Source: Syntrophales bacterium (GTDB taxonomy: Bacteria; Desulfobacterota; Syntrophia; Syntrophales; UBA2210). Taken from it: a stretch of DNA of 64,000 bases. The stretch lies in contig CAXXNF010000002.1 of assembly GCA_963666365.2 (NCBI GenBank), forward strand, positions 96,001-160,000, read 5' to 3'. Shown here one piece after another: positions 24,001-30,000 of this stretch. Made by a program: the position numbers. Each line of letters begins with the position of its first letter. The stretch's first letter is position 1.

Positions 24001-27000
24001 GGGCAGATCGTGAGACCGTGCAACTTCCCTGGAGGGTGATGCATGAACCCATACCGGAAGGACCCAGTGCCGGCCGACACGTACCGCAGCATGAGCTTTT
24101 ATGTATGCTTGATCGATACTATGCCCTTCGCGGGTGGGATGGCAGGGGTATTCCCACGGCGAAGAAACTGAGGGAGCTCAATCTCTTACCATATGTACAG
24201 GATCAGTCATGGGATCGAAGGAACGAAGAGAACGGGAACGGGAACAACGGCGCGCTGAAATACTGAAAACAGCGAGAGAAATCCTTTTTAAAAAGGGGAT
24301 AGACGCAACTTCCATCAATGCAGTTGCGCGGAAGGCTGAACTCAGCGTCGGCACCATTTACCTTTATTTCGAGAACAAGGAGGCTCTTTTGGCGGCACTT
24401 CAGGAGGAGGGGCTCGATCTTCTCTACGACTGCATACGACAGGCGGAAAAGTCCGAACTTTCCCCTCGCGGGAAACTTCGCGCCATGGGGCTTGCCTATC
24501 TCGAGTTCAGCGAGCGGCACCGGAAGTATTTTGACGTAATCAATTATTTCCTGGTCTCGCCGAAGGTCATCTTTTCGCCTGTGCTTAAGGCACGGGTGGA
24601 CGAGCACGTCTCCTCCATCATCACATTGGTGGAAGAGGTGATGGGAGGAGATAAAACCGCCTGTAACGGAAGAGACCGCCGCCTCTGTGCATTCGTGTTC
24701 TGCACTGCACTTCATGGCATACTGCAATTCAAAAAGCTCCGAGAAACCGTGCTCGGAGGGGAGGAGTTCTGCACTTTCTATAGTTCCTGTCTCGAAAATA
24801 TCATCGACGGCATGCACTAATGCAGCCGAATCTTACATCAAAATAATCAGGAAAAACATTGTGCCCAGAATAAAACTTTGGCATACAATAGACACAGAAT
24901 CCGTCACGCAGTTCGCGTTAGTGGCTATAGGGGGAATATGCCGATTAATGGAGCGGTATGATGTCAGCATCTCCGTGGCTGCGTCGATATCAAAAATGTA
25001 TAACCAAGTTTCACACTCCAGTCAGTAAGAAAGGAGACAAGGGATGAAACGGAAAAAGGTAGTGTTTGTCGTAAGCATATTGGTTTCGACATGCATAGCA
25101 ATCCTGTTGCAACCGTCCGTGAGGGCTCAGGAGGCAACCGGCACTGATAACACAGGGGTGGCGGTAGTGCGAGCTTATGGTCCCAGTGGTCCCGTTCCTG
25201 CGATGCAGGAAGCCGCAAAGGCATTTGAGAAAAAAAGGGGGATTCCTGTGGAAATCAGAGCTGGCGCTACACCGATATGGAAAGATCGGGCGATGAACGA
25301 TGCAGATTTGATCTTCAGCGGTTCACAGTGCATGATGACCGACTTTGTGCAGAAACAACTCCCCGGGCTGATCGACACATCGACGATCCTTACATTGTAC
25401 CTGCGTCCGTCTGCAATCCTTGTCCGCCCGGGCAATCCGAAAGGGATCAAAGGCATCAAGGATCTTGCCAAACCGGGGATTCGGGTTCTCGTGGTTCAGG
25501 GCGCCGGGCAGGTTGGCATGTGGGAAGATGTGGTCGGCCGAACGGGGAATGTCAAACTTCTAGAATCCGTGCGCCGTAATATCGGTTTCTTCGCATCAAA
25601 CAGTAATGAGGCAAAAAACCTATGGGCCAGCGATCCAACCTATGATGTATGGCTCGTCTGGACCATCTGGCAAAAAGAGAATCCCGATGCTGCCGATTTA
25701 ATTGAGATTGAACCGGGACACACAATCTATCGCTCTTGCGGCATTGCAGTCACAAACCGTTCGGAGAGAAAGGCATTGGGAAAGGAGTTTATCGATTTCC
25801 TTCAGTCTCCGGCGGGACAAACAATATTCGTGAAATGGGGCTGGCTGGCGCCATAGACTGATTGGTTCCCTTTCGCTCAATCGCCGTGTTTCCTCTTTAA
25901 GAATTGTATCTGCCGAACGAGACAGCCGCCTAAGTACCTTTTCCGGCGATATTGAATCGCTTCTGGGTTGCCATGGGGAACATCCTGAAAGAGTGAAAAC
26001 GAATACTATGGTGAAGAGAAATTCTTCAGCTCTTCTGTGATGCAACATTTTCAAATCCGCTTTTTGCATACCCATGATAACCTTTCGTAAGTGTTTTCGT
26101 GGTGTGTGTCAAATACGTATACCCATAGTTACGGTGTATAAAGCACCACCAGACAGCGGGTGGTTTCGTCGGAGATGCTTTTCAGCCTGTGAGGGATTTC
26201 TGAGTTGAAACGGATCGATTCATGGGGTTTGAGGCGGTGGTTCTTGCCGCCCAGGGTAAGCTCCAGCGTTCCTTCCATGACGTATATGAACTCCTCCCCC
26301 TCGTGCTTATAGGCCACGGGTTTGTGGGCCTGCCATGGTTCGATGGTCACCATAAAGGAACGGAGGTGCTCCTGTCCGCCATCCGGCGTCAATGTTCGAT
26401 ATGAATAATTCTGTGTTCTCGTCACGAATTCCTGAACCCGCCGTTCCCTGATTTCCTTTTTTTCGCGGTTCGACAGGAATGTATCCGGATTGATCTTGAG
26501 AATCTGGGAGAGCCGAAGGAGAAAGGCAACCGAAGGCGATGTTTCATCATCTTCGAATTGTGCGATGGCTTCAGGCGTCTGCCCGGTGGCCTGTGCCAGT
26601 GATTCCGGTGTGAATCCGTGGGTCTCACGAAGTGTGCGAAGCTTTTCTCCAAAGGTCGCCGGGCGGTCGCCGTCGGCTTCTTTCCGAGCATCCTGAAGGC
26701 TGTCGGCAAGACCGCGCATGACGGTCTGTCTGATCTTGGCCGTCAAAAGGGGCAGAATTGATGCGGCATCGGCGATGATTCCGATATCGGCCAGCTCAAA
26801 AATGGGGGCCATCGGATCGCGGTTGATGGCGATTATGGTTTCCGATTCGGTGATGCCGGCGGTGTACTGCACCGCGCCGGAGGTTCCCACCGAGATGAGC
26901 AGGCGCGGCCTGATCGTCTTGCCTGTCTGACCGATCAGACAGTCCTCCCGAGTCCAGTGCAAAAGGACCGGCGGGCGCGAGGCGCCCAGTTCGCCACCCA

Positions 27001-30000
27001 GGGCGGAGGCAAGTTCACGTACAAGGGCAAAGCCTTCGGTTGAACCAAGACCGGCGCCTCCCACTACGACGATGTCGGCATCTTCCAGTTTTTTTTGCGA
27101 TGCCGGTTCCAGCGATCGTTCGATAAGGGTGATCCCGTCGGCCCGGGATGGCGCCGGAAGGGCCATCGGAATCAGGATTCCCTGATGTCCTGACACTTCA
27201 TAAAGCGCCTGTTCCCGAGGCTGCACGGTGGCGAACCCCGGCTTCCGGTAATTTTCAGTATAGGTTATTTCGGCCAGCACTTCCCCTCCCCAGGAGGGGC
27301 AGGCGGCGATGAACCGGTTGTCCCGCAGGGAGATGTCAATACAATCAGCGATCAGTCCCGCATTGCAAAGGCGAGCTGTCCGGGCGGCGAGTTCGCGGCC
27401 GAAATCGCTGAGGGGGAAGAGGACAAGCAGCGGACTTTTCGCTGTGACCGCATGGCTGAGAATCGGTGCAAAGAGATCCGTACGCGCTATGGCAAGGACC
27501 TCGTCATCGAAGAGGTATACATGATCGGCGCCGTGGGCGATCAGGCGTTTTGCAGTGTCATCCATGGGCACTTCATCGCCCGTGAGAAGATCCGCCTGTT
27601 TGCGGTTGTGTTGCGATGAACCCGCAAGGATCGCGCCTGTTTTGGCCGGCAGTGCTTCGCCTAAACGGCGGGCCAGCGACAGAATCCTGAGGCTCTCCGT
27701 GAAGTGCCGTTCGTTCCTCCTGTCGGCGAAAACCCATAGTTCTTTTTCATGCGTCATAATTTTTGTGCATCCATTTCAGCCGATGAGTCCGGATTTCCTG
27801 ATGGCGTCAACAAGCGCCGCTGCCTGTGTTTCCACCGGCCCTCCGATAAATTCGCAGTGCCGCTCCCGCGCTGCCTGCTTCAATGAAAAGACCTCTGTGA
27901 GAGAACCGTTCTTTCCGACGCGGTCTTCTTGAAGATCGAGGTCTTCAAGCGACCACGTGATGATTTCTTTCTGTGTGTAGGCCTCTTCGATGTGTGCGAG
28001 CGGGATATCCCGGGGGATGCAGGCGGTGGGATGCACGGTAAGGGCGGTCGGGAAACTCAGCGCGTAGAGTTCTCTAAACTCGTCTATTTTTCGTTCCACC
28101 CGGCAGGAGTCGTCCTTCCATTCACAGACAAGGACGCCTGTGACAATGGGAATGCCCAGGGCCTCCGCCGTCTGCGGTCCCACGTGGCCGGTGTCGCTGT
28201 CGGCCGCTCTGGCCCCGAATATCACCAGATCATAGGGGGCGAGTCTGGTAATTGCTGCGGCGAGCGCCGTGGATGTTGCCAGGGTGTCCGAATCGGCGAA
28301 ACGAGTGTCGCTGAGAAGCACTCCCCCGGATGCGCCCATGGCCATAGCCTCGTAGAGCGCAAAGGCGCAGGACGGAGGTCCCATGGTAATAACCGTCAGG
28401 GCGCCTGCGCGGGTCTCGGCAATGGCCAGCGCCTTTTCAAGGGCTATGCGGTCGAAGGGGTTCAGCACTGCCGTGTCGGAGTTGCGGCCTGCGCCTTTCC
28501 CCGATGCGTGTAACGTGACGGCCTTGATGCACACAATGCAATGAAATTTCATCCGTTCAAATCCTAAGGTGCGTATTCATCGAGAATCCTCCTGGCGATC
28601 ACCACGCGGTGAATTTCCGATGTTCCCTCATAGATGCGCGTGACCCGGGCATCGCGATAGTATCGTTCGACGGCGTAGGCTTTAGAATAGCCATATCCCC
28701 CGTGAATCTGCACGGCTTTGTCGGTTACCGTGCTCGATGCCTCCGATGCGAAAAGCTTTGCCATGGCCGCTTCTTGGGAGAAGGGACTCCCGGTGTCCCG
28801 GAGTATTGCCGTTCGATACACCAGAAGCCGTGCGGCGTCTACTGTCGTTGCCATGTCGGCGAGCATGATCTGAATCGCCTGGTGATTTCCTATGGGAACG
28901 CCGAACTGTCGCCGCTGACGGGCGTAGCGGGCCGATGCTTCCAAGGCCGCTTGGGCGATGCCCAAGGCCTGGGCGGCAATGCCCATGCGCCCCGTATCGA
29001 GGGTTGCAAGGGCGATTTGAAGTCCCGTGCCTTCCTTTCCCAAAAGGTTTTCCAGAGGTACCGGGCAGTCATAAAGGCGCAGGGAGCATACGGGATTTGC
29101 ACGCATGCCGGAAAGGTCTTCCAGATCTCCCACCACGAACCCTGGAGTGCCCCGCTCTGCTATGATGACGCTGATGCCCTTTCTTCCGGCGGCAGGGTCA
29201 GTACGTGCAAAGATGAGACATACATCGGCGACGGCGCCGTTTGATACAAAAACCTTGTTCGCGTTGACCAGGTAGAAGGTGTCCTTTCGCAGCGCCGTTG
29301 CCTCAATGGCTGCGGCGTCGGAGCCCGCATTCGGTTCGGTCAGGCAGAAGGCGCCGATTTTTTCGCCTCGGGCCAGAGAGGGGACCCATCGCCTTTTCTG
29401 GTCGTCAGTGCCGAAGTGCAGAATGGGATAGACTGCCACACTGTTGTGGACGGTCACCGTAAGCCCCATGGCACCGCTGGCGCGGGAGATTTCTTCTATG
29501 GTAACGGCATAGCTGAGAGAGTCGAGATCCGCTCCGCCATATTCCTTCGGCGCCTGCACGCCGAAATATCCAAGTTTCCCCATTATTTCAACTACTTCCC
29601 AGGGAAAGCGGGATTCCTGATCGATGGCGCCCGCGATGGGCGCAAGCTCCCGGTCGCAGAAGGATCTGACCGATCGGCGGACGGTACGCTGCTTTTCTGA
29701 TAAAAGAGTATTCATCGGGCGCCTCTGATCATTGTGAAGAATGAAGAAGGAAAGTACCAGAAATAAAACCACAAGTCAATGCGGACTGCGTCAAACTTTC
29801 CCCCGGCAATCAACCGATACTTGCCCGGTATTTATTAGGTATTGCATTTTCTATACCCTTATGTTTTGTAGGTGTTCCAGGCATATCGCAAGGGAACGGT
29901 GCGGAAGAAGGCCCGCAGGTTTCTTTTTCTGCTTTCAATCATAGCGGTAAACGCAGACCCTATCCGCTTCAGGGGATTGCGGAAAATAAAAAAGGAGGAC

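Follow-up and report, generated by a model that had tools for sequence, protein, structure and literature searches.

Within the 64,000-nucleotide window of a Syntrophales genome analysed here, a gene for the alpha subunit of an electron transfer flavoprotein (EtfA) continues in one frame into an XRE-type helix-turn-helix (HTH) and a cupin domain. The fusion is genuine, each of its four domains is complete, and it has long been conserved; it forms part of a three-gene cassette with EtfB and an acyl-CoA dehydrogenase. We put at roughly even odds (about 0.5) the reading that this is a bifunctional EtfA, in which a subunit of a bifurcating-type ETF is joined to a local XRE-cupin repressor of its own cassette. 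A fusion of this kind may tie operon control directly to the enzyme that the operon encodes.

EtfA and an HTH-cupin module in one reading frame

The fusion gene is a single frame with an ATG start and zero internal stops. Its parts are as follows.

26129..27757, minus strand: fusion gene, EtfA + linker + XRE-HTH + cupin, 542 aa (open reading frame, Pfam, homologues)
27215..27736, minus strand: ETF domain I of EtfA, aa 8-181 (Pfam PF01012)
26852..27091, minus strand: ETF_alpha FAD-binding domain, aa 223-302 (PF00766)
26654..26767, minus strand: continued terminal helix of EtfA (aa 331-356), followed by the linker (aa 357-368) (AF2)
26477..26653, minus strand: XRE-type helix-turn-helix, aa 369-427 (Pfam HTH_31 and HTH_3)
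26414..26470, minus strand: basic helix connecting HTH and cupin, aa 430-448 (alignment and model)
26138..26407, minus strand: cupin barrel with predicted dimer interface, aa 451-540 (Pfam Cupin_2 and model)

Pfam domains were counted only above their gathering scores, which every match of the fusion protein exceeds: ETF (aa 8-181, 75.4 bits against a cut-off of 26.7), ETF_alpha (aa 223-302, profile positions 1-80 of 81; 95.1 against 27), HTH_31 (aa 369-424; 33.3 against 27), HTH_3 (aa 373-426; 32.3 against 23) and Cupin_2 (aa 469-538; 58.3 against 27.2). The NCBIfam equivalog models all score below their cut-offs. That the fusion arose from an error of assembly or a frameshift can be ruled out, because independent contigs cross the junction gap-free: a 4519-base contig from marine-sediment run X5 differs over 26000-27900 by 21 substitutions, another from run X3 differs over 26405-27899 by 31 substitutions, both have 0 gaps, and none of the four metagenome runs compared showed an insertion or deletion in the region. 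The stop-free continuation from EtfA into the module, as described in an earlier note on this DNA, is thus borne out. Neither an internal start codon nor a Shine-Dalgarno-like site is conserved at the EtfA/HTH linker.

All four domains are present in 117 of the 120 homologues among the matches listed, the other three being 312-441-aa pieces on contigs of 952-1464 bases. When 400 other genomes of the phylum were surveyed with a junction-spanning query (aa 223-542), 19 of them, from 9 families and at 42-63% identity to the query, had the junction within a single frame of 529-601 aa uninterrupted by stops; two further genomes gave a cut or truncated match, and none of the 13 same-order or same-family genomes in this sample matched. 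In kind, this survey agrees with the earlier count, in which three of 40 Syntrophales genomes had the fused form and the others the free one. The fusion is kept across lineages only 34-54% identical, and the HTH-cupin module (57-76%) is more conserved than the ETF half (about 45-55%). Like the earlier search, ours found no paper on an EtfA-XRE-cupin fusion in the literature covered.

A conserved, self-contained cassette

The surroundings of the fusion gene comprise the following features.

27776..28552, minus strand: etfB (small/beta subunit), 258 aa (Pfam ETF, 114.6 bits)
28564..29772, minus strand: acyl-CoA dehydrogenase, first gene of the cassette (Pfam Acyl-CoA_dh_N/M/1)
29716..29871, no strand: divergent intergenic region between the dehydrogenase and acyl-CoA synthetase genes, 156 bases, the expected place of an operator
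29872..31659, plus strand: AMP-binding acyl-CoA synthetase, divergent (Pfam AMP-binding)

The proposed acyl-CoA dehydrogenase/etfB/etfA operon stands: the three genes share a strand, with gaps of 11 bases (dehydrogenase to etfB) and 18 bases (etfB to fusion gene), and the order Bcd-like dehydrogenase, EtfB, EtfA fusion recurs at 26 of 32 distinct loci. At 29 of the 32, etfB lies directly upstream of the fusion gene, and EtfB is the presumed partner of the fusion protein. Three loci deviate from the cassette: L010 has the fusion alone, L127 lacks the dehydrogenase and L130 carries a truncated 293-aa form. The cassette is conserved and self-contained and its flanks are variable, the 139 ORFs that flank it in 18 loci showing no common neighbours. 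The range 26129-28552 given in the earlier note covers etfB together with the fusion gene.

The dehydrogenase ORF opens with GTG at 29772, but the start is likely the ATG at 29715 (residue 20), since orthologues begin at this position. The intergenic region contains imperfect inverted repeats at 29802-29828 and 29838-29857, which are candidates only and are not conserved at other loci; a consensus promoter scan of the region gave no match. The divergent acyl-CoA synthetase is a possible co-regulated gene. It lies beside the cassette in this genome only, and elsewhere just one locus (L123) has one nearby.

The HTH-cupin module and the question of DNA binding

The C-terminal part of the protein belongs to the XRE-cupin family and is unexceptional in it. 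Residues 366-542 have the HTH/helix/cupin architecture of PuuR, of PauR, PsdR and ErfA of Pseudomonas, and of the Vibrio cholerae regulator 1Y9Q, to which the module is matched both by profile (E 4e-16, 62.5 bits) and by fold (Foldseek E 9e-13). The NCBIfam PuuR model also matches (E 1.9e-15), although 56.9 bits against a cut-off of 211 leads us to reject the module as a PuuR orthologue. One study (PMC7901475) describes the family as local, ligand-sensing repressors: the factors studied in Pseudomonas all act locally to repress neighbouring metabolic genes and attach to palindromes in dimeric form, and regulators encoded as second genes of operons are known.

The HTH domain is modelled with five helices, its PDB profile matches are 1Y9Q, SinR and phage repressors, and the canonical positions R377, E402, P408 and V410 are invariant or nearly so. 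The connecting helix carries a net charge of +3, with R440 and R447 invariant. In the cupin, the invariant residues Y483, H485, E489 and H523 line up with quercetinase YxaG's metal ligands; the His/Glu/His positions recur in E. coli PuuR, a DNA-binding transcriptional repressor according to its RefSeq annotation. A cupin-mediated dimer is predicted, as in the XRE-cupin factors: the module homodimer scored an ipSAE of 0.59 against 0.00 for the best of three controls, a mark attained in the tool's calibration by 20 of 30 pair structures and by 1 of 23 single-chain structures, although the model used a self-built alignment and its likeness to solved cupin dimers may raise the score. At least 96% of contacts agreed between runs, and partner pLDDT was at least 67.

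The module belongs to a subfamily linked to acyl-CoA dehydrogenase genes. Free relatives at 41-45% identity directly adjoin such genes in three lineages (this genome, G059/G330 and G017), and the free copy in this genome lies between a thiolase gene ahead of it and a dehydrogenase gene after it, stop and start codons overlapping. On the subfamily tree, fused forms are interspersed with free ones, which, together with the free forms beside dehydrogenases, suggests that the module works on its own.

What sets the module, a putative DNA binder, apart from the known XRE-cupin factors, besides its attachment to EtfA, is an acidic HTH. The HTH net charge is -4 in this protein, -6 to +1 in 20 fused sequences and -6 to -3 in the dehydrogenase-linked free forms; of the four other free relatives listed, L138, L140 and L143 have +4 or +5 and L139 has 0, and the distant paralog L148 again has +4 or +5. 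The recognition helix, with the consensus GQ-S/T-PEFIxQVE, is without Lys or Arg in most fused forms. Upstream of 27 cassettes no perfect inverted repeat was shared by more than two loci, the same as in shuffles; k-mer enrichment was weak, scattered in position and yielded no operator; and an EM search for a palindromic motif scored 144 against 127-130 for shuffles run with fewer seeds, the motif stemming largely from related coding sequence in one family. Taken together, the acidic HTH and the missing shared operator count against even plain DNA binding.

These same observations would be expected if the module no longer bound DNA and had become an accessory domain that binds a metal or ligand within the dehydrogenase-ETF machinery, whether for dimerisation or docking, as an allosteric sensor, or as a catalytic cupin in electron exchange with the ETF flavin. 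Precedent for the last is found in hydroxypropylphosphonate epoxidase (HppE), an enzyme with an HTH-like alpha domain and an iron cupin, which carries a 2-His-1-Glu iron site and shows that an HTH-cupin fold need not be a DNA binder. HppE chains match both parts of the module (profile positions 19-182, E 1.5e-7, 34.6 bits; fold E about 1e-10), the invariant cupin residues map onto quercetinase metal ligands, and the overlapping stop and start codons of free homologues inside beta-oxidation operons are as often seen for subunits. We nevertheless consider this reading unlikely, if deserving of attention. PuuR shares the triad, lacks Lys and Arg in the stretch aligned with helices 2-3 and, by our own alignment count, has a net charge of only about +1, so neither the triad nor the lack of basic residues is diagnostic of lost DNA binding. 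The match to 1Y9Q is far better than that to HppE, the canonical HTH positions are retained, and second-gene regulators are known in the family (PMC7901475).

Proposed local repression and possible coupling to electron flow

For the bifunctional EtfA that we favour, we infer the following arrangement. The N-terminal 345 residues would pair with EtfB to form an FAD-containing, bifurcating-type ETF that serves the adjacent Bcd-like short-chain acyl-CoA dehydrogenase. The C-terminal 200 residues would dimerise through the cupin barrel and, like other XRE-cupin proteins, repress locally in response to a small molecule, perhaps an acyl-CoA or enoyl-CoA that binds to the conserved His/Glu/His/Tyr site, a metal possibly taking part. 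An XRE-cupin module would in this lineage have become joined to the operon's last gene, and the cassette would thereby carry its own regulator, produced one-to-one with the enzyme. The fusion requires no mechanistic coupling of the two halves, and the reading without redox coupling is the simpler one. A further step would be coupling via sequestration in the dehydrogenase-ETF complex or via flavin state.

The closest model for such coupling is PutA, presented in PMC5293562 as a flavoenzyme that doubles as the repressor of its own operon, with the role taken set by the state of the enzyme. Because of this precedent, the earlier description of the fusion as a new kind of redox-sensing regulator was overstated. 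Trifunctional PutA and the fusion protein alike place a flavoenzyme and a DNA-binding domain, putative in our case, in one chain, and by analogy the cassette may work like PutA. The domains are unrelated, however: PutA combines a ribbon-helix-helix at its N-terminus with FAD proline dehydrogenase and P5C dehydrogenase, whereas the fusion protein combines an ETF with a C-terminal XRE-HTH, possesses a cupin sensor in addition, depends on EtfB as a second subunit and implies no membrane step.

In a PutA-like switch, which is the reading of the earlier note, flavin redox or docking of the mobile FAD domain onto the dehydrogenase would alter where the tethered module sits or how it dimerises, and DNA binding, and with it expression, would follow electron flow. 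The module does hang on the C-terminal helix of EtfA's FAD-bearing domain by a linker of variable sequence and nearly constant length (pLDDT below 50 at aa 360-364), the fusion has been retained across strongly diverged lineages, and the predicted module dimer would link two ETF heterodimers. Such a switch nonetheless seems improbable to us: nothing points to contact or co-variation between module and ETF, with a whole-chain pTM of 0.54 that does not place the packing confidently; free subfamily members adjoin dehydrogenase genes without any ETF; the cupin pocket already provides a conventional ligand sensor; and DNA binding is itself doubtful.

The ETF half and its relatives

Judged by their matches, both ETF subunits resemble electron-bifurcating ETFs most. 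The EtfA half has its best PDB match in bifurcating 5OL2_A (173 bits, against 107 for human 1EFV_A), Foldseek puts the bifurcating EtfAs 4KPU_A and 5OL2_A first, and the 'GL-ADC' stretch of domain I, a domain modelled at pLDDT mostly >90, aligns with bifurcating EtfAs. The best PDB matches of EtfB are all bifurcating ETFs (5OL2_B 131.8, 6FAH_B 123.6 and 4KPU_B 119.4 bits, against 52.3 for human 1EFV_B), with which its first 21 residues do not align.

Conservation in the EtfA half is strong at particular residues. G276, Q277, G279, S293, G294 and D330 are invariant in all three alignments made; R261 is invariant in two and at least 90% conserved in the third, T278 and Q297 are invariant in two, and N312 is invariant in one and at least 90% conserved in the two others. 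That the protein is primarily a transcription factor, with the ETF half and EtfB as a non-catalytic FAD- or NADH-sensing input, is a long shot: this genome contains two further etfAB pairs of the ordinary kind, the module is the better conserved half, the fused clade has Tyr or Phe for the His of the canonical 'SGAIQH' stretch and most fused forms read 'GGAG' for 'GGRG', but the His-to-Tyr change is common to the nearest unfused EtfAs (P0132 and P0140), other FAD-site motifs are intact, and the cassette brings its own EtfB and a highly conserved dehydrogenase (orthologues 57-75% identical), as fits a working enzyme set.

Among the matches of the three cassette proteins, the corresponding chains of the Bcd-EtfAB complex from C. 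difficile (5OL2) rank first or close to it (EtfA 173, EtfB 132, dehydrogenase 399 bits), and 4KPU, 6FAH and 7KOE are further bifurcating ETFs of this likeness. It is a likeness of sequence and, for EtfA, of fold, with the second FAD and bifurcation putative; EtfA here differs from these proteins in being 200 residues longer and in the Tyr of 'SGAIQH'. For the dehydrogenase, 5OL2_C (Bcd of that complex) and 4M9A are the best PDB sequences, both at 399 bits, and the NCBIfam AcrC-like model scores 456 bits, under its cut-off of 640.

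Architecture of the locus

Electron transfer flavoproteins (ETFs), the electron-bifurcating members above all, hold a central place in the energy conservation of fermenters, syntrophs and sulfate reducers, and to our knowledge little has been established about how their expression is matched to electron flow. In the window, an EtfA subunit continues into an XRE-type helix-turn-helix (HTH) and a cupin domain, here together called the module, at the end of a tightly spaced minus-strand cassette of three genes in which dehydrogenase and etfB are separated by 11 bases.

Features of the cassette and of the 542-aa fusion protein
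28564–29772, minus strand: acyl-CoA dehydrogenase; likely start ATG 29715, because orthologues begin there
27776–28552, minus strand: etfB, 18 bases upstream of the fusion gene
26129–27757, minus strand: fusion gene, a single stop-free frame of 542 aa
Fusion residues 8–181: ETF (PF01012), Pfam 75.4 bits, gathering cut-off 26.7
Fusion residues 223–302: ETF_alpha (PF00766), Pfam 95.1 bits, cut-off 27, covering 80 of 81 profile positions
Fusion residues 369–426: HTH_31/HTH_3, above the Pfam gathering scores
Fusion residues 469–538: Cupin_2, above the Pfam gathering score
Divergent from the cassette: acyl-CoA synthetase gene, starting 156 bases upstream of the dehydrogenase

A genuine and patchily distributed fusion

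The earlier note's claim that EtfA, HTH and cupin form one chain is borne out, both by the four Pfam domains and by independent contigs that span the junction. For instance, one 4519-base contig from a sediment metagenome (run X5; contig depth 194) covers 26000–27900 with 21 substitutions and no gaps, and a second sediment metagenome (X3) covers 26405–27899 with 31 substitutions, again gapless. No insertions or deletions are listed over the junction region in four metagenome runs, and the 36 coding differences listed, beyond which there are 8 further differences, comprise 20 synonymous and 16 nonsynonymous changes without a single stop. Near-identical strains, about 98–99% over the gene, occur in X3, X5 and X6, which are sediment metagenomes of several studies. 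Among 17 runs listed, no RNA data set containing the locus appears.

The architecture also recurs well beyond this genome. A protein search with the HTH-cupin query against proteins of 298–949 aa gave 713 matches at E ≤ 0.001, and among the 120 matches listed, 117 homologues of 439–568 aa combine ETF and ETF_alpha with an HTH family and Cupin_2; the other three are 312–441-aa pieces on contigs of 952–1464 bases. Full-length forms group into a few clusters (50%-identity representatives P0015, P0123, P0127, P0131 and P0125), and the ESM Atlas holds a 60-member cluster with ETF, ETF_alpha and Cupin_2 and a 245-member cluster with ETF_alpha, Cupin_2 and HTH_3, both mostly from Thermodesulfobacteriota. 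Of 400 other genomes sampled evenly across the phylum and queried with the junction-spanning residues 223–542, 19 carry the junction in one stop-free frame, with frames of 529–601 aa, identities of 42–63% and representation in nine families; in two further genomes the copy is incomplete, running off a contig end in G269 and truncated in G121. The 12 same-order genomes and the one same-family genome gave no match to the junction query at E ≤ 1e-40. This breadth across families, the range of identity and the lack of same-order or same-family matches together mark the fusion as old, patchy and maintained. An assembly artefact or frameshift is rejected by the four-domain homologues, the single-frame genomes and the gapless metagenome contigs alike.

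The idea that an internal start yields the module as a separate protein is likewise rejected: Met347 is missing in divergent fused clades, few candidate starts are preceded by a Shine-Dalgarno-like sequence, and at the junction neither an internal start nor a ribosome-binding site is conserved.

A third ESM Atlas row, scoring 0.75 and a lead only, lists 56 Thermodesulfobacteriota proteins of about 494 aa that pair a PTA_PTB phosphate acyltransferase with a cupin, a further case within the phylum of an acyl-CoA enzyme joined to a cupin.

The cassette travels as a unit

The acyl-CoA dehydrogenase/etfB/etfA operon of the earlier note proves to be conserved. By tblastn of the window proteins on 33 fusion-bearing loci, 32 of them distinct (L019 and L134 being one contig), 26 of the 32 show the genes in the order dehydrogenase–EtfB–fusion. 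Three more loci stop at a contig edge (L011, L120 and L017), and in three the pattern is broken, with the fusion alone (L010), without the dehydrogenase (L127) or as a truncated 293-aa form (L130). The dehydrogenase is best conserved, at 57–75% identity, with EtfB and the fusion each at 34–54%. Beyond the three genes, a Pfam scan of 139 flanking ORFs from 18 loci, those of 168 that lie no more than 4.3 kb from the cassette, found no common neighbour: flanking genes include DHDPS, ArgJ/SecA, PEPCK, DnaJ and Rnf, and beta-oxidation genes are occasional (thiolase and 3-hydroxyacyl-CoA dehydrogenase at L121; synthetase and hydratase at L123). Since gene order is kept while flanks are not shared, the three genes travel as a unit with a putative regulator of their own.

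Spacing within the cassette varies. Long spacers of 170–630 bases separate dehydrogenase from etfB, or etfB from the fusion, in some cassettes (L016, 5555–6182; L013, 5910–6173; L008, 5961–6161; L018, 5851–6020 and 6796–6992), as against 11 and 18 bases in the window. The truncated form in G121 (L130, 2924–3805, minus strand) corresponds to fusion residues 251–542, that is, part of ETF_alpha with HTH and cupin; it lacks ETF domain I and has neither etfB nor a dehydrogenase upstream, and may be a decay or fission intermediate.

An ETF half closest to the bifurcating type

By sequence, both ETF subunits are closest to the solved electron-bifurcating ETFs rather than to canonical ones. The EtfA part matches 5OL2_A (the C. 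difficile Bcd-EtfAB complex) at 173 bits, and the bifurcating ETFs 4KPU_A at 162 and 7KOE_B at 161, with human 1EFV_A at 107; EtfB scores 132 bits with 5OL2_B versus 52 with 1EFV_B. The dehydrogenase aligns with Bcd of the same complex (5OL2_C) at 399 bits, level with its top match, 4M9A, and in a Foldseek search with the AlphaFold model of the fusion EtfA chains lead, 4KPU_A and 5OL2_A first (E 1.7e-31). In a loose motif check of EtfB, bearing on a second, bifurcating FAD in place of AMP, the stretch DsDTghVGPQ aligns with 5OL2_B, and the first 21 residues are unaligned.

Conservation in the ETF_alpha domain is strong. G276, Q277, G279, S293, G294 and D330 do not vary in any alignment, those of 75 fused proteins and of unfused EtfAs included, and conservation at R261, T278, Q297 and N312 is complete or at least 90%; from ETF structures, we presume these residues to be FAD contacts. 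Two positions depart from the usual pattern in fused EtfAs: Tyr or Phe replaces the His of SGAIQH (Tyr298 in the window protein), a change common to the nearest unfused EtfAs (P0132 and P0140), and most fused forms have GGAG for GGRG (residue 235 in the window protein). These changes might shift flavin properties. The genome encodes two further etfAB pairs, both ordinary. Our reading is that the ETF half serves as a functional subunit of a specialised ETF of the bifurcating type.

The HTH-cupin module

Residues 366–542 form a complete XRE-cupin unit. A profile built from 20 modules matches the V. cholerae XRE-cupin regulator 1Y9Q across both domains (E 4.3e-16), with SinR and phage repressors next, over the HTH part. 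The NCBIfam PuuR model NF007408 also matches (E 1.9e-15), at 56.9 bits against a curated cut-off of 211, which rejects the module as a PuuR orthologue and leaves it a relative. In the AlphaFold model of the whole chain (mean pLDDT 83.6, pTM 0.54), the last helix of EtfA extends to residue 356, a low-confidence linker follows (357–368), and beyond it come five HTH helices, a basic connecting helix (430–448) and the barrel. Within the cupin, Y483, H485, E489 and H523 are invariant in fused proteins and free relatives, and align with the metal ligands of the quercetinase YxaG, with Tyr replacing the first His.

Modeling supports a putative cupin-cupin homodimer of the module. With an alignment of our own, the interface reaches an ipSAE of 0.59 versus 0.00 for the best control, with at least 96% contact agreement between runs and partner pLDDT of at least 67; in calibration of the method, 20 of 30 proteins with structures solved as pairs attained the same mark, as did 1 of 23 solved as single chains, although likeness to solved cupin dimers may contribute to the score.

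Free relatives and repeated fusion or fission

Many genomes of the phylum encode free proteins with 41–45% identity to the module. Among 11 free-form genes whose surroundings we examined (a 25%-identical paralog on contig 2 falls below the match threshold), four, from three lineages, directly adjoin acyl-CoA dehydrogenase genes. On contig 1 of the same genome (417793–419516; L137, 6451–9516), thiolase, a 190-aa HTH-cupin paralog 41% identical to the fusion module, and dehydrogenase follow one another with overlapping stops and starts, and a CoA-transferase gene then lies on the opposite strand. In G059 and G330 the order is thiolase, hydratase, dehydrogenase, HTH-cupin, dehydrogenase, and in G017 it is MeaB, HTH-cupin, dehydrogenase; the other seven genes have unrelated neighbours. 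The link of this module subfamily to acyl-CoA dehydrogenases is thus independent of the fusion. Taken together, the fusion and its dehydrogenase-adjacent free relatives make control of acyl-CoA dehydrogenase operons a likely role for this uncharacterised XRE-cupin subfamily.

Fused forms are interspersed with free ones in a quick maximum-likelihood tree, built from 41 modules and with a long-branched paralog as root, and its well-supported branches force at least two state changes; a free 202-aa protein (P0141), for example, nests among fused forms. From this interleaving, P0141 and the truncated L130, it follows that the module works both free and fused, and that there has been more than one event of fusion or fission.

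Enzyme subunit and repressor, or accessory domain?

In a published account, the XRE-cupin factors studied are local repressors that each bind at least one intergenic region by their own gene, as a dimer on a palindrome, with the cupin pocket as presumed signal sensor (PMC7901475). By analogy, the fusion would most likely be both the alpha subunit of the cassette ETF and the repressor of the cassette. A repressor so encoded would be produced in a fixed ratio with the enzyme, and binding of an effector in the conserved site of the cupin would lift repression; because of the neighbouring genes, our guess for the effector is an acyl-CoA or enoyl-CoA. Since the module is predicted to dimerise, it would join two ETF heterodimers. 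We infer that assembly onto the dehydrogenase could compete with DNA binding, as we do for any effect of flavin reduction. PutA is a known precedent for such an enzyme/repressor switch (PMC5293562), the analogy being one of mechanism only, as the fusion has no RHH or proline dehydrogenase Pfam domain.

A metal-dependent role without DNA binding is a live rival, because the enzyme HppE matches the module across both the HTH and the cupin parts, by profile (E 1.5e-7) and also by fold. The acidic character of the HTH points the same way. Its net charge is −6 to +1 in fused forms and −6 to −3 in dehydrogenase-linked free forms; among the other listed free relatives it is +4 or +5 in three of four (L138, L140 and L143) and 0 in L139, and it is likewise +4 or +5 in the distant paralog L148. 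The recognition helix, GQ(S/T)PEFIxQVE, is without a basic residue in most fused forms. PuuR of E. coli, however, annotated in RefSeq as a DNA-binding transcriptional repressor, has His, Glu and His at the same positions as the module cupin, no Lys or Arg in the aligned helix 2–3 stretch, and an HTH region of about +1 by our own count from the alignment. The 2-His-1-Glu positions therefore do not tell enzyme from regulator, and a lack of basic residues in that stretch weighs less against DNA binding.

The upstream sequences also bear on the rival, as no conserved operator was found upstream of the dehydrogenase in 27 cassettes by three methods. Perfect inverted repeats (half-sites of 5–7 bases, gaps of 0–15) are common to at most 2 of the 27 loci, as in shuffles. 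Among k-mers allowing one mismatch, the best, TAAAAACCC, occurs in 14 of 27 loci versus a shuffle maximum of 9, at scattered positions. Expectation maximisation on 20 of the 27 regions, excluding near-duplicate, operon-internal or short ones (L118, L124, L121, L134, L133, L007 and L119), returned a palindromic motif, AAaTcC..GgAtTT, scoring 144 versus 127–130 in four shuffles run with fewer seeds; we do not claim it as an operator, its top sites lying in one family's conserved upstream coding sequence and its window site being weak. The intergenic region of the window holds imperfect repeats only, all locus-specific, and a consensus scan of 25800–30000 gave one promoter-like site, within a coding region, and seven terminator-like sites, no more than in shuffles.

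A bolder form of the enzyme–repressor reading seems to us improbable. Here the EtfB-fusion complex would be a direct transducer from electron flow to transcription, in which an HTH-cupin dimer, anchored on the C-terminal, FAD-bearing domain of an ETF of the bifurcating type, would be released from or clamped onto DNA by FAD-domain reduction or dehydrogenase docking. An anaerobe would in this way set the expression of a beta-oxidation and bifurcation module by that module's own redox poise.

In either form, the fusion would be the enzyme–repressor principle of PutA and an XRE-cupin local regulator joined to an ETF, and both kinds are already known. We know of no DNA-binding domain in an ETF. 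Full-text searches of one literature library turned up no paper that describes an ETF joined to an HTH or a cupin, in agreement with the earlier note. In sequence databases the architecture appears under automatic names only, such as "FAD-binding protein" or [quoted passage not shown], and the curated NCBIfam models include none for it. Should the module bind DNA, the fusion would be the first ETF subunit to double as a transcription factor, and a second, unrelated example of the PutA principle; if it binds none, it would represent a new dehydrogenase-ETF accessory domain on a regulator fold. With the mechanism a proposal, the fusion offers a ready-made test case for how anaerobes control bifurcating ETF modules.

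Other features of the window

Downstream of the cassette lie an aldehyde:ferredoxin oxidoreductase (22389–24266), a TetR regulator (24134–24820) and a periplasmic SBP_bac_11 protein (25044–25856), which might bind tungstate or molybdate and serve the oxidoreductase. Elsewhere, a 536-aa MFS transporter frame with a GTG start (18265–19875) overlaps the end of a TPP-enzyme gene (16835–18529) by 265 bases; its true start is probably later, because the Pfam match begins at residue 131.
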